From NCBI RefSeq assembly GCF_988242995.1, contig NZ_OZ547043.1: a DNA stretch of 64,000 nucleotides, one strand, 5' to 3'. Below, one piece after another: positions 19,217 to 56,612 of the stretch. Both the position numbers and the translations under genes were made by a program. How positions within the stretch are numbered: position 1 is the first letter of the stretch; every line of letters starts with the position of its first letter. The notes beneath the pieces were generated by a model, which ran no database searches, was not told the DNA's origin, and saw only the letters and a list, made by a program, of their open reading frames with translations.

Positions 19217-19732
<516 letters not shown>

Positions 19733-36325: not shown

Positions 36326-38371
36326 TTAATCGACAAAATCACCGTGCTGCCTGGCCACCAGCGTCAGAATTGAATACAGCGCCACCGGGGTTTGATGCTG
36401 ATTGAATACCTCTACCGACCATTCCACTACACCTGTTGGTTTTTCTTCTGCGCTACGCTGTTTTTTCAGCGTCTTGCGCTTACAGGTGAGACGCACCTGG
36501 ATGGTATCGCCTGGTTTTACGGGTTCGATAAAACGCAAGTTTTCCAGCCCGTAGTTAGCAATGACCGGACCAACTCCGGCATCGACAAACAGACCCGCAG
36601 CCGCAGAAAGCACAAAATACCCATGCACCACCCGCTCACCGAAAATAGATTCGGCAGCGGCAATTTTATCCATATGTGCATAGAAATGATCGCCGCTGAG
36701 GCAAGCAAAGTTAACAATATCGGCCTCTGTCATTGTGCGGCGGGGGGTCAGCAGGCTGTCGCCTGGTTGCAACTCCTCAAAATATTTGCGGAACGGATGA
36801 ATACGATCTTCTTCGACTTTCGCACCGCGCACCCACTGTTTACTGATAGCGGCAAGCATCGTCGGACTACCCTGAACAGCGGTTCGCTGCATGTAATGTT
36901 TCACCGCTCGTAAACCACCTAATTCTTCACCGCCTCCTGCGCGACCAGGCCCACCATGTAACAGTTGTGGCAGTGGGGAGCCATGCCCGGTGGATTCTTT
37001 TGCCGATTCTTCATTGAGGATCTGAATTCGCCCATGCGTACGCGCCGCGTCGGCAATAAACTGACGCGCAATTTGCGGATCAGCCGTCACCAGCGTTCCC
37101 GCAAGGCTACCACCGCCTGCACAAGCCAGTTGCAGAGCATGTTGCTGGTTTTGTGCTGGCATCAGCGTTGCGACAGGGCCAAAGGCTTCTGTTGCATGTA
37201 CCGCCGGTGTTTCATCCGGCTGCGGACAGTACAATAAGGTTGGCGGGAAGAATGCACCCGCAGCAGATAAATCCGCCTGACCACCGAGGCGAATCTCGCA
37301 TCCTGCAGCCAGCAATGTGTTCACTTTTTCCTGCACATCGGCACGCTGTTCAGCATTTACCAGTGCGCCCATTTTCACGCCTTCCTGCCCAGGATCACCG
37401 ACCACGACTTTCTGTAATCGCGCAACCAGAGCATCACTGACAGCATTAACCAATGCCTGCGGCACAATAATCCGCCGGATTGCCGTACATTTTTGCCCGG
37501 CTTTTGTGGTCATCTCACGCACAACTTCACGAATAAACAGTGCAAACTCCGGTTGATCCGGGGTGACATCTTCGCCCAGTACGCAGCAGTTCAGGGAATC
37601 AGCTTCCATGGTGAAGGGGATAGATTTGGCGACGATATTTGGCTGAACACGTAGCATCTGTCCGGTCGTCGCAGAGCCCGTGAAAGTCACCACATCCTGG
37701 CTGTCCAGATGATCCAACAAGTCGCCCGCACTACCGCAGATCAGACTAATTGCGCCTTCGGGAACAAGACCACTATCGACAATTGATTTTACCATCGCCT
37801 GAGTCAGTTGGGCAGTCGCGGTGGCAGGTTTGATGATGGCTGGCATTCCGCCCAGCCACGTTGGTGCCAGCTTTTCCAGCATTCCCCAGCAGGGGAAGTT
37901 AAAGGCGTTAATATGCACTGCCACGCCTGACTTTGAGGTCAGTACATGGCGCGCGGCAAATCCACCTTCTTTCGATAAGGGGATCAATTCATCTTCCGGC
38001 CACAGCGTATCGTCAGGCAGCTCCCGGCTACCGAGGCTGGCGTATGTAAATAACGTCCCAATGCCACCTTCAATATCAACCCAACTGTCTGCCCGCGTTG
38101 CGCCTGTTTGTGCAGAAAGAGCATAGAAACGCTCTTTTTCACTCAGCAGATGTTTAGCGACCGCTTTAAGCATCGCCGCACGTTCGATAAAGGTCATAGC
38201 GCGGAGGGCGGGGGCACCTTTTTCAATGGCAAACTGGCGGGCAGCCGCCATATCAAGACCTTCACTGGTCACTTCCCATAACGCCTCGCCGCTAATGGCG
38301 TGGTGAATCAAACGGCTACGGCCCCGGCCAGACTGCCAGGTACCGGATAAGAAACTGGCTAACTGCTGCAT
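36326..38371 (-). CDS. paaZ: Bifunctional oxepin-CoA hydrolase / aldehyde dehydrogenase PaaZ
   Basis: 681 aa; aldehyde dehydrogenase domain plus C-terminal MaoC-like hotdog domain. Confidence 0.9.
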
Positions 38372-38603
38372 CGCTACTCTCCAGATGTTTCACATTTCTG
38401 TTGCTAATAGTTAAATCGCGAATCATAAAAAGCAAGTGGTCTTTTAACGAAATGTTAACTATGCGATCTGTATAGCAACTGCGAAAAACATTAATGCACT
38501 GATAAATAATGATTTATAAAAATAGGGTGCGAAATTCGTCACAGTTCAAACATACAAAATTTGTGATTTTAGTTAACCATTGTGTAACTTTCATAAAACA
38601 ACG

Positions 38604-38642
38604 TGATTCGTGTTTTTAATTAAATCACGAAATCTGGAATCG
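38604..38642. promoter_or_regulatory. Candidate PaaX operator in the paaA promoter
   Basis: TGATTC-N27-GAATCG, one mismatch to the TGATTC-N27-GAATCA consensus as I recall it, just upstream of paaA. Confidence 0.45.
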
Positions 38643-38655
38643 TAAAGGTGATGAC

Positions 38656-39585
38656 GTGACCCAAGAAGAACGCTTTGAGCAACGGATAGCCCAGGAAACG
38701 GCTATCGAGCCGCAGGACTGGATGCCCGATGCTTACCGAAAGACATTGATCCGCCAGATTGGGCAGCATGCGCACTCCGAGATTGTGGGTATGTTGCCTG
38801 AAGGTAACTGGATCACTCGCGCACCAACCTTGCGGCGTAAAGCCATTCTGTTAGCCAAAGTGCAGGATGAAGCCGGTCATGGTCTGTATCTCTATAGCGC
38901 CGCCGAAACACTGGGCTGCGCCAGAGAAGACATCTACCAAAAAATGCTCGACGGACGGATGAAATATTCCTCCATCTTTAATTATCCGACATTGAGTTGG
39001 GCTGATATCGGTGTTATCGGCTGGCTGGTGGATGGCGCAGCGATCGTCAATCAGGTGGCGTTATGCCGCACTTCTTATGGCCCGTATGCCAGAGCAATGG
39101 TGAAAATCTGCAAAGAAGAGAGTTTTCACCAGCGTCAGGGGTTTGAAGCCTGCATGGCACTGGCGCAGGGCAGCGAAGCTCAAAAGCAGATGTTGCAAGA
39201 CGCCATTAACCGTTTCTGGTGGCCAGCCTTAATGATGTTCGGGCCAAACGATGATAACTCGCCAAACAGCGCCAGAAGTCTCGCCTGGAAAATCAAACGT
39301 TTCACCAACGACGAACTCCGCCAGCGTTTCGTGGATAACACCGTTCCACAGGTTGAAATGCTCGGTATGACCGTTCCTGACCCGGATCTGCATTTTGATA
39401 CTGAAAGCGGTCACTACCGCTTTGGTGAGATCGACTGGCAGGAGTTTAACGAAGTGATAAACGGTCGCGGAATTTGTAATCAGGAGCGGCTCGACGCCAA
39501 ACGTAAAGCCTGGGAAGAAGGTACCTGGGTACGGGAAGCTGCGCTGGCCCATGCACAAAAACAACATGCCTGTAAGGTCGCATAA
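38656..39585 (+). CDS. paaA: Phenylacetyl-CoA 1,2-epoxidase subunit A
   Basis: 309 aa, [14 protein letters not shown] (GTG start). Confidence 0.9.
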
Positions 39586-48167: not shown

Positions 48168-48267
48168 TGTGTCGTCTGGCCCTGGTGAGGTAAAGCGCCA
48201 GGGCCAGAAGTCGATACGACCTGTGCTATGATTCATAAATCACAACAATAACAACAGACTGAATCGA

Positions 48268-49218
48268 ATGAGTAAACTTGATACTTTTATCCAACATGCT
48301 GTAAACGCTGTTCCGGTCAGTGGCACATCTTTGATCTCCTCTCTGTATGGTGATTCACTTTCCCATCGTGGTGGTGAAATCTGGCTGGGTAGTCTGGCTG
48401 CTTTGCTGGAAGGGCTGGGATTTGGTGAGCGTTTCGTGCGCACCGCTTTGTTTCGTCTTAATAAAGAAGGCTGGCTGGATGTTTCCCGCATCGGGCGACG
48501 CAGTTTCTATAGCCTCAGTGATAAAGGCTTGCGCCTGACGCGACGGGCAGAAAGTAAAATTTATCGCGCTGAGCAACCTGCATGGGATGGTAAATGGCTC
48601 CTGTTGCTCTCGGAAGGTTTAGATAAAACGACGCTGGCTGATGTCAAAAAGCAGTTGATCTGGCAAGGTTTTGGCGCACTGGCACCCAGCCTGATGGCAT
48701 CGCCGTCGCAAAAACTGGCCGATGTACAGACACTTTTGCATGAAGCGGGTGTGGCGGATAACGTGATTTGTTTTGAAGCGCAAATACCACTGGCGCTTTC
48801 TCGCGCAGCACTGCGTGCCAGAGTAGAAGAGTGCTGGCATTTAACTGAACAAAATGCCATGTACGAAACCTTTATTCAGTCATTCCGCCCGCTGGTGCCG
48901 CTGTTAAAAGAGGCGGCAGACGAATTAACCCCGGAGCGTGCATTTCATATTCAGCTTTTACTGATCCATTTTTATCGCCGTGTCGTCCTTAAAGACCCAT
49001 TGTTGCCGGAGGAGTTGCTTCCGGCTCACTGGGCAGGGCATACGGCGCGTCAGCTGTGTATCAACATTTATCAGCGCGTAGCGCCTGCTGCTTTAGCGTT
49101 CGTTAGTGAAAAAGGTGAAACCTCGGTCGGTGAACTGCCTGCGCCGGGAAGCCTGTATTTTCAACGTTTTGGCGGTTTGAACATTGAACAGGAGGCGTTA
49201 TGCCAATTTACCAGATAG
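48268..49218 (+). CDS. paaX: Transcriptional repressor PaaX
   Basis: 316 aa. Confidence 0.9.
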
Positions 49219-49790
49219 ACGGTCTGACTCCGGTTGTACCAGAAGAGAGTTTTGTTCATCCGACAGCGGTATTGATCGGCGATGTTATTCTCGGCAAGGG
49301 CGTGTACGTTGGGCCAAATGCCAGCCTGCGTGGCGATTTCGGTCGTATCGTGGTGAAAGATGGCGCGAACATTCAGGATAATTGCGTTATGCACGGTTTT
49401 CCCGATCAGGATACTGTCGTGGAAGAAGATGGGCATATTGGTCATAGCGCTATCCTTCACGGCTGCATTATCCGCCGCAATGCATTAGTGGGTATGAACG
49501 CGGTAGTGATGGACGGTGCGGTGATTGGCGAGAACAGCATTGTTGGCGCTTCCGCATTTGTGAAAGCCAAAGCAGAAATGCCTGCTAATTACCTGATTGT
49601 CGGCAGCCCGGCAAAAGCGATTCGTGAACTTAGTGAGCAGGAACTGGCATGGAAAAAGCAGGGCACGCATGAGTATCAGGTGCTGGTGACACGCTGTAAG
49701 CAGACGTTACATCAAGTCGAGCCATTGCGGGAAGTTGAACCTGGCAGGAAACGCCTGGTATTTGATGAGAATCTGCGACCGAAACAGTAA
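49200..49790 (+). CDS. paaY: Hexapeptide-repeat thioesterase PaaY
   Basis: 196 aa, left-handed beta-helix repeats. Confidence 0.9.
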
Positions 49791-50120: not shown

Positions 50121-53100
50121 ATGCAAAGGAAAACTTTATTGTCGGCCTGTATTGCATTAGCTCTGAGTGGTCAGGGTTGGGCGGCAGATATCACAGAGGT
50201 AGAAACCACCACAGGTGAAAAGAAAAATACTAATGTGACTTGTCCGGCAGATCCAGGAAAACTCAGTCCGGAAGAGCTTAAACGCTTACCCTCTGAATGC
50301 ACCCCTTTAGTCGAACAAAACCTGATGCCATGGCTTGCCACAGGCGCTGCTGCGTTAATCACGACCTTAGCCGTAGTGGAACTAAACGACGATGATGATC
50401 ATCATCATCGCAACAATTCTCCACTCCCACCGACGCCCCCTGATGATGATTCAGACGACACTCCAGTGCCCCCAACTCCTGGCGGAGATGAGATAATACC
50501 GGACGTTCCGGATGATACGCCTACACCTCCCAAACCGATTTCGTTTAATAATGACGTTATTCTCGATAAAACAGAAAAAACGTTAACTATTCGCGATTCA
50601 GTTTTTACTTATACCGAGAATGCTGACGGGACTATTTCTCTGCAAGATAACAGTGGTCGTAAGGCAACGATTAATCTTTGGCAGATTGATGAAGCGAATA
50701 ATACTGTTGCCCTTGAAGGTGTGAGCGCAGATGGCACAACAAAGTGGCGATATAATCACAACGGTGAGCTTGTTATAACGGGTGATAATGCCACAGTAAA
50801 CAACAATGGCAAAACCACCGTTGACGGTAAAGACTCCACCGGCACGGAAATCAACGGTAATAACGGAAAAGTTATCCAGGACGGCGATCTGGATGTCAGC
50901 GGCGGCGGTCACGGCATTGATATCACCGGCGACAGCGCGACGGTGGATAACAAGGGCACCATGACCGTCACCGATCCGGAGTCCATCGGTATTCAGATCG
51001 ACGGCGACAAGGCGGTTGTTAACAACGAAGGCGACAGCACCATCAGCAATGGTGGCACCGGCACACAGATTAACGATGATGATGCCACGGCGAATAACAA
51101 CGGCAAAACCACCGTTGACGGCAAGGATTCCACCGGTACAGAAATCAACGGTAATAACGGGAAGGTTATCCAGGATGGCGATCTGGATGTCAGCGGTGGC
51201 GGTCACGGGATTGATATTACCGGCGACAGCGCAACGGTGGACAACAAGGGCACCATGACCGTCACCGATCCGGAGTCCATGGGGATCCAGATCGACGGCG
51301 ACAAGGCCATCGTCAATAACGAAGGCGAGAGCACCATCACCAACGGCGGCACCGGTACGCAGATTAACGGTGATGACGCCACGGCGAACAACAACGGCAA
51401 AACTACCGTTGACGGTAAAGATTCCACCGGTACAGAAATCAACGGTAATAACGGAAAAGTGATTCAGGGCGGCGATCTGGATGTCAGCGGCGGGGGCCAC
51501 GGCATTGATATCACCGGTGACAGCGCGACGGTGGATAACAAGGGCACCATGACCGTTACCGATCCGGAGTCCATCGGTATCCAGATCGACGGCGACAAGG
51601 CGGTTGTCAATAACGAAGGCGACAGTTCCATCAGCAACGGCGGCACCGGTACGCAGATTAACGGAGATGACGCCACGGCGAACAACAGCGGCAAAACCAC
51701 CGTTGACGGTAAAGACTCCACCGGCACGGAAATCAACGGTAATAACGGAAAAGTTATCCAGGACGGCGATCTGGATGTCAGCGGCGGCGGTCACGGCATT
51801 GATATCACCGGTGACAGCGCAACGGTGGACAACAAGGGTACCATGACTGTCACCGATCCGGAGTCCATCGGTATTCAGATCGACGGCGACAAGGCCATCG
51901 TCAATAACGAAGGCGACAGCACCATCAGCAACGGCGGCACCGGCACACAGATTAACGGTGATGACGCCACGGCAAACAACAACGGCAAAACCACCGTTGA
52001 CGGTAAAGATTCCACCGGTACGGAAATCAACGGTAATAACGGAAAAGTGATTCAGGACGGCGATCTGGATGTCAGCGGTGGCGGTCACGGGATTGATATT
52101 ACCGGTGACAGCGCGACGGTGGATAACAAGGGCACCATGACCGTCACCGATCCGGAGTCCATGGGGATCCAGATCGACGGCGACAAGGCCATCGTCAATA
52201 ACGAAGGCGAGAGCACCATCACCAACGGCGGCACCGGCACGCAGATTAACGGTGATGACGCCACGGCGAACAACAACGGCAAAACTACCGTTGACGGCAA
52301 GGATTCCACCGGCACGGAAATCAACGGCAATAACGGAAAAGTTATCCAGGACGGTGATCTGGATGTCAGCGGCGGCGGTCACGGCATTGATATTTCTGGC
52401 GATAATGCCGCCGTCGATAACAAAGGCAATATGACCGTCACGGACGCAGACTCGATCGGTGTACTGATCAATGGCGACAACGCGACACTTGCCAATACTG
52501 GTGATGTGGATGTCAGTAATTCAGCGACGGGATTTGCTATTACCAGCGACGAGGGGAAAATCTCCCTCGCGGGAAGTATGCAGGTCGGTGATTTTTCAAC
52601 AGGGCTGACATTAACTGGCGATAATAATAGCCTGACAATGGCAATGCAGGATCTTAATGTCGTTGGTCAGAAAGCTACAGGTATTAACGTCTCCGGTGAT
52701 GCCAACACAATTGATATAACTGGTAATATTCTGGTTGATAAAGATCAGAGCGCAGACAATGCGGCAGAGTATTTTTATGACGCTTCCGTGGGCGTAAATG
52801 TCAGTGGTCATAATAACAATGTGACACTGGATGGTAAATTAACGCTTGTTGCGGATGGTGAAACTACCACACGTGATGTCTCGAATTTTGATGGTAGCCA
52901 GGAAAATATTTCTGGTCTTATTGTTTCCGGTGATGGTAACAACATCAATCTGAATGGCGGGATTGCATTTGTTGGTGAAATAAATGCGCTGACCGATGGT
53001 TCAGCCATTGCTAACAAACGGACTTTCTTCGGTAATACGCCACTTATTGGTATTGATGGTGAATCGAAGGTATATCTGAATGGTGACTCAACGATCAGTG

Positions 53101-56100
53101 GTGATCTGCAACTAGGATATGCAAGCCTTATCCAGTTAAAAAATAAAGCAGCTATTGAGATTGGCAGTGAAGCTACTTTCAATATGCGGGATATTGAAAA
53201 TTATGATCATTACTATGCACAAACACCACAGATTATAAAGGCAGAAAGTAGCTCTGAGGTCATAAATAACGGTAATGTTGATATCTGGAATATCAGTTTT
53301 GCTGGTATCTTTGGCGAAAATACCACAGGTATCAATAACGGGAATATCACACTTTCTCTGTATGATTATGCCTCAACTAATACGCCAGCACCGGAACCAG
53401 ATAACACGGCCTTCTTGACCTCTAACGGCGGCAGCGCAGTAAACAAAGGGGTAATTACCTCAAAAGTAATGGAGCAACATAGCGTTGTTAATATGGCTGC
53501 ACTCACGGGGTCAACGGATCAGCGCGTGTTTAATAACAGCGTAGCAAGCATGATGGGGATGGAGGCGTATAATAAAGGCTCTGTTCTCAATGCCGAAGAT
53601 GCTGTCATTGATATGTATGGACGCGGTAGCATTGGCATGTTAGCCATCGATAACTCAACGGCGGATAATGCAGGCAATATTACGGTGGATACGTTATGGA
53701 TTGATGACAATGACACCACCAGTTTGCATACCGATCTTCCGGGGGCAACGGCAAAAGATTATGGCGTTGGTATGGCAACCGGGACAGACACCGGGGGTGG
53801 CGCTCGTAACAACGCTATTGCGACCAACCTGGAAGGTGGTGTAATTACTGTATATAACGCAGGTGCCGGTATGGCCGCCTACGGTAACAGTAATATGGTT
53901 ATTAACCAGGGAATCATTAACCTCGAGAAAAATGCAGATTACGATGCAAACCTGGGTAGTAATACGCTGGTAGGGATGGCAGTGTATAAAGGTGCTACGG
54001 CAATAAACGACCAAACTGGTGTAATCAATATTAATGTTGATACGGGCCAGGCGTTTTATAATGATGGTACAGGCATTATCCTCAACTATGGTGAGATTAA
54101 TCTCAACGGAGCGGAAATTGATAGCACCGACTCTCATTATGGTGCTCCTGCAGAGAATCTGGAACTGTTATCTGAATTGAGTGCCAGTGGAGAGAACATT
54201 ACAAAAACAGTTATCCGAGATGGCTTTGTTACCATTAAACCGCTGGCTAATTATGGTACAGAAATACTGAACGGCGATGTCGATGCCAACCTATGGTTAT
54301 ATAACGAGGATAAGGCCAGCCTGACAGTTAATGGTGATTTGAATATTGTCCAGGGGCTGGAAAACAGCGGGAGCATGGATGCCGACAAGCTTACTGCCAA
54401 TGCCAGTGTTTACAATCGCGCCTCGGGCAGTATGACAACCGAACTGTTAATGTTAAAAGGCGGGTCTGCCTTCTTCAATGAGGGAAGCTTTAGCGGAGTA
54501 ATTAGCGGTGATAGTTATAAACAAAACGTTGTAAATACGGGGGAGATGACAACTGTCACAGATGGTAGTGCCTTAATTAACGGCAGTTTCGTACTTTATA
54601 ATGAAGCCGGTTCAACGCTTACAAATAGCGGCAATGCTATTGCGGGAGGGGAAAATGCCATCGTTAATATCACACGCACCAGTGATTCTCTTTCACAGGT
54701 TAACCGCGGAAAAATTACCGCCACAAACGGTTACAGTGCGATTAAAACTGCCAGCACAGCCTCTAACAGCAACGGCAAATGGATTTGGAATACAGAAACC
54801 GGTGTAATTAATGGTATCAATCCAGATGCTCCACTGATTGATTTAGGTCGCGGGTATAATTTTGCTAACGCCGGAACAATTAATGTTCAGGGTGATGGTT
54901 CAGTTGCTATTAGCGGAGGCACCACCAGCTATACTGTTCAGTTAGTGAACAGCGGCACAATTAACGTGGGTACTGAACAGGGCAAAGCAGATGGAAGCAA
55001 CGGTGAAGGTCTGATTGGCATCAAAGGAAATGGTTCTGCAACAACGATTAATAATACTAAAGACGGTGTCATTAACGTTTATGCAGATAATTCATGGGCG
55101 TTTGGTGGTTCCACTAAAGCGATTGTGAATAATGGGATAATCAACCTGTTGTGTAATATTGGTTGCGAGATTTATGCGCCAAATACCACAGGGACGAGAA
55201 ACAGTCAGGATGGAACTGCGGATATAATCGTACCGGTCGCTTCTGCGACGCCTGGGCAAGGTAATGTTCCTGCGGCACCAGTCAATGCTGTAAGTCAGCA
55301 AAAACTTACCAATTACACTATTGGTACTAATAGCGACGGAAGTTCCGGCACCTTGAAAGCCAATAACCTTGTTATCAGTGACAACGTCAAGGTAAATACT
55401 GGCTTTAGTGCAGGAACTGCTGATACTACCGTGGTGATTGATGATGTTTTCAAAGGTGAAAATATCAGCGGCGCGGAGAATATCACTTCCTCTTCAGTTG
55501 TCTGGAACGCTAAAGGCAGTACCGATGCCAGCGGCAACGTTGACGTCACTATGAGCAAAAACGCTTATACCGATGTGGCGACCGATGCTTCGGTGAATGA
55601 CGTCGCGAAAGCACTGGATGCGGGTTACACCAACAACGAGCTGTATACCAGCCTGAACGTCGGCACGACTGCCGAACTGAACAGCGCCCTGAAACAGGTC
55701 AGCGGTAGCCAGGCGACCACGGTATTCCGCGAAGCGCGTGTGCTCAGCAACCGCTTTAGCATGCTGGCAGATGCCGCACCGAAAGTGGGTAACGGTCTGG
55801 CGTTCAACGTGGTGGCGAAAGGCGATCCGCGCGCGGAGCTGGGGAACAATACCGAGTACGACATGCTGGCACTGCGTAAAACCATTGACCTGAGTGAAAG
55901 TCAGACCATGAGTCTGGAGTACGGTATCGCTCGTCTCGATGGCGACGGTGCGCAGAAAGCTGGCGATAATGGTGTTACAGGCGGTTACAGCCAGTTCTTT
56001 GGCCTGAAACATCAGATGTCCTTCGACAATGGCATGAACTGGAACAACGCATTGCGTTATGACGTTCACAACCTTGACAGCAGCCGTTCGATTGCATTTA

Positions 56101-56612
56101 GCAACACGAACAAAACTGCTGATACCGACGTGAAACAGCAGTACCTGGAGTTCCGCAGCGAAGGAGCGAAGACTTTCGAACCGAGCGAAGGGCTGAAGGT
56201 CACACCATATGCGGGTGTGAAACTGCGTCACACACTGGAAGGTGGCTATCAGGAGCGCAATGCCGGAGACTTTAACCTGAATATGAACAGTGGTAGCGAA
56301 ACGGCGGTGGACAGCATCGTCGGGCTGAAACTGGACTATGCAGGTAAAGACGGCTGGAGCGCTAGCGCTACGCTGGAAGGCGGGCCGAACTTGAGCTACG
56401 CGAAGAGCCAGCGCACAGCAAGCCTGGCAGGTGCAGGCAGTCAGCACTTTAACATCGATGACGGTCAGAAGGGCGGCGGCATCAACAGCCTGGCAAGTGT
56501 CGGCGTGAAGTACAGCAGCAAAGAAAGTTCGCTGAATCTGGATGCGTACAACTGGAAAGAGGAAGGCATCAGCGACAAAGGCGTGATGCTGAACTTCAAG
56601 AAAACGTTCTAA
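50121..56612 (+). CDS. ydbA: Large autotransporter adhesin-like protein, uninterrupted
   Basis: 2163 aa: signal peptide, Pro/Asp/His-rich linker, about six and a half tandem 98-aa repeats, long beta-helix-like passenger, and a C-terminal beta-barrel translocator ending in F. Confidence 0.85.
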   Translation: MQRKTLLSACIALALSGQGWAADITEVETTTGEKKNTNVTCPADPGKLSPEELKRLPSECTPLVEQNLMPWLATGAAALITTLAVVELNDDDDHHHRNNSPLPPTPPDDDSDDTPVPPTPGGDEIIPDVPDDTPTPPKPISFNNDVILDKTEKTLTIRDSVFTYTENADGTISLQDNSGRKATINLWQIDEANNTVALEGVSADGTTKWRYNHNGELVITGDNATVNNNGKTTVDGKDSTGTEINGNNGKVIQDGDLDVSGGGHGIDITGDSATVDNKGTMTVTDPESIGIQIDGDKAVVNNEGDSTISNGGTGTQINDDDATANNNGKTTVDGKDSTGTEINGNNGKVIQDGDLDVSGGGHGIDITGDSATVDNKGTMTVTDPESMGIQIDGDKAIVNNEGESTITNGGTGTQINGDDATANNNGKTTVDGKDSTGTEINGNNGKVIQGGDLDVSGGGHGIDITGDSATVDNKGTMTVTDPESIGIQIDGDKAVVNNEGDSSISNGGTGTQINGDDATANNSGKTTVDGKDSTGTEINGNNGKVIQDGDLDVSGGGHGIDITGDSATVDNKGTMTVTDPESIGIQIDGDKAIVNNEGDSTISNGGTGTQINGDDATANNNGKTTVDGKDSTGTEINGNNGKVIQDGDLDVSGGGHGIDITGDSATVDNKGTMTVTDPESMGIQIDGDKAIVNNEGESTITNGGTGTQINGDDATANNNGKTTVDGKDSTGTEINGNNGKVIQDGDLDVSGGGHGIDISGDNAAVDNKGNMTVTDADSIGVLINGDNATLANTGDVDVSNSATGFAITSDEGKISLAGSMQVGDFSTGLTLTGDNNSLTMAMQDLNVVGQKATGINVSGDANTIDITGNILVDKDQSADNAAEYFYDASVGVNVSGHNNNVTLDGKLTLVADGETTTRDVSNFDGSQENISGLIVSGDGNNINLNGGIAFVGEINALTDGSAIANKRTFFGNTPLIGIDGESKVYLNGDSTISGDLQLGYASLIQLKNKAAIEIGSEATFNMRDIENYDHYYAQTPQIIKAESSSEVINNGNVDIWNISFAGIFGENTTGINNGNITLSLYDYASTNTPAPEPDNTAFLTSNGGSAVNKGVITSKVMEQHSVVNMAALTGSTDQRVFNNSVASMMGMEAYNKGSVLNAEDAVIDMYGRGSIGMLAIDNSTADNAGNITVDTLWIDDNDTTSLHTDLPGATAKDYGVGMATGTDTGGGARNNAIATNLEGGVITVYNAGAGMAAYGNSNMVINQGIINLEKNADYDANLGSNTLVGMAVYKGATAINDQTGVININVDTGQAFYNDGTGIILNYGEINLNGAEIDSTDSHYGAPAENLELLSELSASGENITKTVIRDGFVTIKPLANYGTEILNGDVDANLWLYNEDKASLTVNGDLNIVQGLENSGSMDADKLTANASVYNRASGSMTTELLMLKGGSAFFNEGSFSGVISGDSYKQNVVNTGEMTTVTDGSALINGSFVLYNEAGSTLTNSGNAIAGGENAIVNITRTSDSLSQVNRGKITATNGYSAIKTASTASNSNGKWIWNTETGVINGINPDAPLIDLGRGYNFANAGTINVQGDGSVAISGGTTSYTVQLVNSGTINVGTEQGKADGSNGEGLIGIKGNGSATTINNTKDGVINVYADNSWAFGGSTKAIVNNGIINLLCNIGCEIYAPNTTGTRNSQDGTADIIVPVASATPGQGNVPAAPVNAVSQQKLTNYTIGTNSDGSSGTLKANNLVISDNVKVNTGFSAGTADTTVVIDDVFKGENISGAENITSSSVVWNAKGSTDASGNVDVTMSKNAYTDVATDASVNDVAKALDAGYTNNELYTSLNVGTTAELNSALKQVSGSQATTVFREARVLSNRFSMLADAAPKVGNGLAFNVVAKGDPRAELGNNTEYDMLALRKTIDLSESQTMSLEYGIARLDGDGAQKAGDNGVTGGYSQFFGLKHQMSFDNGMNWNNALRYDVHNLDSSRSIAFSNTNKTADTDVKQQYLEFRSEGAKTFEPSEGLKVTPYAGVKLRHTLEGGYQERNAGDFNLNMNSGSETAVDSIVGLKLDYAGKDGWSASATLEGGPNLSYAKSQRTASLAGAGSQHFNIDDGQKGGGINSLASVGVKYSSKESSLNLDAYNWKEEGISDKGVMLNFKKTF
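50798..52560 (+). repeat. In-frame tandem repeats inside ydbA: 294-bp unit (98 aa), ~6.5 copies
   Basis: Recurring unit NNNGKTTVDGKDSTGTEINGNNGKVIQDGDLDVSGGGHGIDITGDSATVDNKGTMTVTDPESIGIQIDGDKAVVNNEGDSTISNGGTGTQINDDDATA with a few substitutions per copy. Confidence 0.85.

Follow-up and report, generated by a model that had tools for sequence, protein, structure and literature searches.

The segment spanning positions 38604-38642 of the 64-kb stretch of DNA analyzed here (hereafter, the window) is, judging from its sequence and from comparison with other genomes, very probably the operator through which the GntR-type repressor PaaX controls the E. coli paaA (Pa) promoter. As such, it constitutes an already known element, described previously and found intact in its known place in this strain. 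The 601 bases surrounding the site have matches in 3,131 of 5,426 complete E. coli genomes, and the annotation there names the flanking genes paaZ and paaA. The operator is contained in the 284 bp that separate paaZ from paaA; it ends 13 bases before the GTG start codon of paaA at 38656. The features relevant to this assignment are the following.

36326-38371, minus strand: paaZ, divergently transcribed; from the annotation of matching genomes, Pfam and K-12 alignment.
38386-38425, minus strand: paaZ promoter (Pz) operator, TGATTC-N28-GAAACA; found in a one-mismatch scan and predicted to reach from about -26 to about +14 relative to the Pz start.
38399, minus strand: predicted paaZ (Pz) transcription start, from the ArcA coordinates in PMC3798270.
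38548-38601, minus strand: published predicted ArcA-P site with four direct repeats, mapped from the PMC3798270 supplement; covers the Pa core promoter.
38594, plus strand: predicted start of Pa (paaA) transcription, located 62 bases upstream of the GTG; from the ArcA coordinates in PMC3798270.
38604-38642, plus strand: Pa operator for PaaX, TGATTC-N27-GAATCG; assigned from its unique pattern, consensus and conservation, and predicted to span about +11 to +49.
38604-38609, plus strand: promoter-proximal half-site TGATTC; perfect consensus match, invariant in every sequence examined.
38610-38636, plus strand: A+T-rich spacer of 27 bases; sequence not conserved.
38637-38642, plus strand: promoter-distal half-site GAATCG; the consensus is GAATCA, and the last base differs, as it does in K-12.
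38645-38652, plus strand: Shine-Dalgarno-like AAGGTGAT of paaA, 2 bases past the operator; assigned by inspection, in a flank conserved across genera.
38656-39585, plus strand: paaA, first gene of the paaABCDEFGHIJK operon, with a GTG start; from Pfam and K-12 alignment.
48229-48266, plus strand: paaX promoter (Px) operator, TGATTC-N26-GAATCG; exact match directly before the paaX ATG.
48268-49218, plus strand: paaX, the repressor gene, encoding 316 aa; from Pfam, K-12 identity and the match to PDB 8A39.
49200-49790: paaY.

The Pa operator was read from the plus strand of the window as TGATTC (38604-38609), a 27-base spacer with the sequence GTGTTTTTAATTAAATCACGAAATCTG (38610-38636; 74% A+T) and GAATCG (38637-38642). 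The initial annotation had placed a TGATTC-N27-GAATCG inverted repeat upstream of paaA, and the search for this pattern confirms it at 38604-38642: exactly one match was obtained on both strands of the window, none is expected by chance, and all of 100 dinucleotide-preserving shuffles returned zero matches. Relaxing the pattern to TGATTC-N25-29-GAATC yielded two matches, versus 0.24 expected, the second of which (48229-48265) lies directly before the paaX ATG. When one mismatch in total was allowed, nine strand-counted hits were identified in the window, versus a mean of 2.7 in block shuffles, and the scan also picked up the paaZ-side site. Two one-mismatch matches were found outside the paa cluster, at 2608-2646 and 19604-19640; their number is consistent with chance, and they are likely to be chance occurrences.

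The E. coli PaaX binding sequence is given in a 2022 review (PMC9493321) as TGATTC(N27)GAATCA and attributed there to Kim et al. 2004. Against this consensus, the window site shows the exact N27 spacing and matches 11 of 12 half-site bases (6/6 for TGATTC, 5/6 for GAATCG), so that the fit to PaaX half-sites and spacing that had originally been suggested holds. The sole departure in the half-sites is the final G in place of A, which is common to K-12. The same review mentions a sequence in Pseudomonas sp. Y2 resembling the E. coli PaaX site and states that PaaX represses all three promoters, Pa, Pz and Px, with phenylacetyl-CoA as the inducer, that PaaX autoregulates Px, and that, as of its publication, no structure of a PaaX-DNA complex had been reported (PMC9493321). 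Literature searches on the operator sequence and its footprints met the consensus only in PMC9493321, the other papers mentioning PaaX being without site data. The RefSeq record for K-12 annotates no regulatory features at the paaZ-paaA locus. The original papers reportedly describe an extended 15-base motif around the proximal half-site, WWTRTGATTCGYGWT. Relative to this motif, the K-12 Pa (AATGTGATTCGTGTT) and Pz (TTTATGATTCGCGAT) sequences are full matches, and the window Pa sequence (AACGTGATTCGTGTT) matches at 14 of 15 positions.

The repressor itself is encoded 9.6 kb downstream of the Pa operator, within the same cluster. The predicted PaaX protein contains the Pfam PaaX, PaaX_M and PaaX_C domains, is identical to K-12 PaaX at 314 of 316 residues (99%) and corresponds along its whole length to the E. 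coli PaaX of the solved structure PDB 8A39. The other paa Pfam domains were detected as expected, and each of the 14 paa proteins can be aligned from first to last residue with its K-12 counterpart at 98.5-100% identity, with no gaps and no stops. Given an intact paaX and all 14 paa genes at full length, the further proposal of the initial annotation, that this strain harbors a functional, repressor-controlled paa operon, may fairly be upheld. The phenylacetate-degradation cluster of this strain is accordingly intact and its wiring normal, the three promoters under PaaX control all being present, a result that adds little beyond annotation.

Two further observations were made at and beyond the distal end of the cluster. 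Between the paaK stop codon and the Px operator, positions 48175-48208 form a perfect stem of 11 bases around a loop of 12 (TCTGGCCCTGG...CCAGGGCCAGA) that is not followed by a T-run; this could be a partial terminator or a transcript-stabilizing hairpin dividing paaK from paaXY. On the 3' side of paaY, positions 50121-56612 hold an uninterrupted open reading frame of 2,163 aa with BigA/YdbA N-terminal and beta-sandwich domains. Its K-12 counterpart, ydbA, is a disrupted pseudogene, and this strain may have kept an intact ydbA copy.

Like the Pa operator, the sister operators at Pz and Px each present a perfect promoter-proximal TGATTC with a second hexamer 26-28 bases away. The Pz operator differs from Pa in its degenerate distal half (GAAACA), in its N28 spacing and in its predicted overlap with the core promoter (-26 to +14). 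In those Enterobacteriaceae where paaZ is divergent, the proximal TGATTC of Pz is unchanged in sequence and position, and the distal hexamer is degenerate, appearing as GAAACA, GAACCA or GTAACA. A conserved AACTAT was also observed within the Pz operator spacer. The Px operator differs from Pa in its N26 spacing and in abutting the paaX ATG; an N26 site occupies the same place before paaX in 17 other genera-level loci, and the site at 48229-48266 is presumably the operator for Px autoregulation. The distal Px hexamer is polymorphic in E. coli: it reads GAATCG in the window and in strains RMDEC364, NIPH17 and KS-NP019, and GAAGCG, a poorer match, in K-12 and Sanji.

Conservation of the Pa operator was assessed first within E. 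coli. The K-12 paaZ-paaA intergenic region is 98% identical to that of the window, with both hexamers unchanged. Both Pa hexamers are invariant in eight E. coli alleles with 92.9-99.6% identity; K-12 and six further E. coli alleles share the half-sites of the window exactly. The spacer varies among these alleles through substitutions and, in strain HS-02, through a one-base deletion that results in N26 spacing. The window allele additionally presents a perfect inner 7-base inverted repeat, CGTGATT/AATCACG, at 38602-38608 and 38623-38629. This inner repeat is also present in the Citrobacter sp. R56 sequence, and it is weaker in K-12 (5/7) because two of the three differences between the window and K-12 fall within it.

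The analysis was extended to species-representative genomes encoding PaaA, comprising 80 scanned loci. In Enterobacterales, all 43 of 43 paaA loci contain an exact TGATTC-N26-28-GAATC instance located 51-83 bases before the aligned paaA start. Across 851 kb of Enterobacterales loci, only 18 other exact matches were identified, all of them with N26 spacing and directly before paaX. The spacing ranges from 26 to 28 bases in 44 orthologous sites. The distal hexamer is the fully palindromic GAATCA in most genera and GAATCG in E. coli, Citrobacter sp. R56 and Rosenbergiella. The Pa spacers of the Enterobacterales average 78% A+T, with pairwise identities of 42-44%. The preservation of the hexamers while the spacers diverge points to selection acting on the hexamers and on the distance between them, and not on the spacer sequence. 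A third GAATC copy, in the form GTGAATC, was observed in the Pa spacer 11 bases before the distal hexamer in several genera (loci L016, L018, L022, L025 and L027), which suggests alternative or additional PaaX contacts. At the 21 loci from Bacteroidota and Alphaproteobacteria, for which the sequence examined (within about 10 kb of paaA) showed no paaX, no TGATTC-N26-28-GAATC site was found.

In the Moraxellaceae, the architecture of the E. coli operator is retained with different hexamers. All 16 of 16 loci from this family (Acinetobacter, Psychrobacter and others; L042, L045-L052 and L054-L060) present a GATAC-N27/28-GTATC site about 87-101 bases before paaA. Where paaX falls within the examined sequence, the Moraxellaceae PaaX is about 39% identical to that of E. 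coli. A second GATAC/GTATC copy with N26/27 spacing was found about 2.5 kb upstream at twelve of these loci, and about 3.1 kb upstream at L045; this second copy probably sits before paaZ. Pseudomonas PaaX sites reportedly use GATACA/TGTATC-type hexamers, as the Moraxellaceae loci do. We put forward as a tentative model, possible rather than probable, that PaaX reads a long-range bipartite site of two hexamers about three helical turns apart, separated by an A+T-rich spacer that can bend and is free in sequence, that hexamer specificity has co-evolved with the repressor (TGATTC/GAATC in Enterobacterales versus GATAC/GTATC in Moraxellaceae), and that natural variants tune repression between strains. 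If this bipartite reading is true, the tuning variants would be the N26, N27 and N28 spacings, the distal GAATCG of E. coli, the weakened GAAGCG of K-12 Px and the inner CGTGATT/AATCACG repeat.

No promoter for paaA emerged on the plus strand in a simple sigma-70 scan, and the start site was hence derived from ArcA coordinates. The supplement of PMC3798270 lists a predicted ArcA site at paaA (U00096.2 1451843-1451896) located at -46 to +11 from the paaA start, as taken from Ferrandez et al., and an ArcA site at paaZ located at -62 to -42. Mapping these coordinates onto K-12 and the window yielded the Pa and Pz starts. The resulting Pa start, 38594, agrees with the construct ends given in PMC3798270, at -194 relative to the start of translation and at -132 relative to that of transcription, if both constructs have a common upstream end. 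On this basis, the Pa operator would lie at about +11 to +49 and the Pz operator at about -26 to +14. The ArcA site ends, at 38601, just before the PaaX operator, which would place the two repressors side by side. Two CRP-like sequences, either of which may be the published CRP site, were also observed upstream of paaA: TGCGA-N6-TCACA at 38528-38543, conserved in Citrobacter and centered at about -58.5, and TGTGA-N6-TTAAC at 38562-38577, inside the ArcA site.

These elements can be assembled into a putative mechanism. PaaX, produced from paaXY in the same cluster, would bind the inverted hexamers TGATTC and GAATCG, the centers of which lie 33 bp apart; since this distance corresponds to about three helical turns, the hexamers would be displayed on roughly the same face of the DNA, and the A+T-rich spacer, arbitrary in sequence, probably eases bending. 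According to the literature, bound PaaX would keep paaABCDEFGHIJK off as long as phenylacetyl-CoA is lacking, and phenylacetyl-CoA, the first intermediate of the pathway, would release PaaX from the operator. PaaX is described as competing with RNA polymerase at Px and Pz, and as acting by a different mechanism at Pa (PMC9493321). The predicted operator positions, +11 to +49 at Pa versus -26 to +14 at Pz, fit the statement that PaaX acts differently at Pa, and competition with polymerase fits a Pz operator overlapping the core promoter and a Px operator abutting the start codon. With the Pa operator downstream of the predicted start, repression is likely to act after or alongside polymerase binding, and it probably blocks late initiation or promoter escape instead of simply excluding RNA polymerase.

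The adjacency of the ArcA site also bears on whether the repeat could belong to another regulator of Pa, such as ArcA, CRP or IHF, and not to PaaX. The ArcA-P site ends at 38601, and its stated footprint of -46 to +11 touches the left half-site; moreover, the spacer holds TTAATTAA, which resembles the ArcA core. The ArcA footprint, however, stops where the PaaX operator starts, and conservation is confined to the two hexamers, leaving out the spacer. These hexamers are met again ahead of paaX and of paaZ; across the loci examined, they were found only where a PaaX at least 53% identical to that of E. coli is detectable, or in close relatives whose examined sequence ends before paaX. Assignment to a different regulator is consequently regarded as very improbable.

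Since the operator falls within the predicted 62-base leader and is probably transcribed (+11 to +49), ending 2 bases before the Shine-Dalgarno sequence, its arms might instead act as RNA, forming a paaA leader hairpin that controls translation or stability; the perfect inner 7-base inverted repeat of the window allele, CGTGATT/AATCACG, would also be compatible with such a role. The leader, however, folds at -10.7 kcal/mol (z = 0.32), a value equaled or bettered by 114 of 200 shuffles. The outer arms would provide just five pairs to close a loop of 27 bases. In the 44 sequences compared, the arms do not covary but stay the same in sequence, which points to base-specific recognition by a protein, and the Pz copy of the motif lies mostly upstream of its start. 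A leader hairpin was thus rejected as hardly credible, its folding being no better than that of shuffled sequences. That the repeat is a functionless coincidence of A+T-rich intergenic sequence can be excluded from the pattern of conservation and retains practically no probability: short hexamers are indeed common (TGATTCG occurs 8 times in the window, versus 10.7 expected) and one-mismatch versions of the full pattern exist at 2608 and 19604, but the full pattern is unique in the window, where none is expected, and the site persists at all 43 Enterobacterales loci although their spacers have turned over, with other exact matches only before paaX.

With a PaaX operator at Pa as the favored assignment, the cross-genus comparison provides a computational definition of this operator in terms of invariant hexamers, a spacing of 26-28 bases and a free, A+T-rich spacer. 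This definition could serve the annotation of PaaX regulons and the choice of variants for structural study of the 33-bp span.

Compared with the PaaX operator described at Pa of E. coli W and K-12 (Ferrandez, Garcia and Diaz 2000), the window site shares the locus, the half-sites, the 27-base spacing and the distance to the paaA GTG. Its probable coincidence with the region footprinted there is supported by the consensus in PMC9493321, by the start coordinates derived from PMC3798270 and by the 15-base motif. It departs from the K-12 Pa sequence by three point differences, one at 38602, shortly before the left half-site, with C replacing T, and two within the spacer, at 38624 and 38631. The sites at the penicillin G acylase (pac) promoter of E. 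coli W (Kim et al. 2004; Galan et al. 2004) and at the paa and sty promoters of Pseudomonas sp. Y2 (del Peso-Santos et al. 2006), outlined in part in PMC9493321, reportedly have the same bipartite inverted-repeat architecture and serve different target genes; they share with the paa operators the repressor family and the response to phenylacetyl-CoA.
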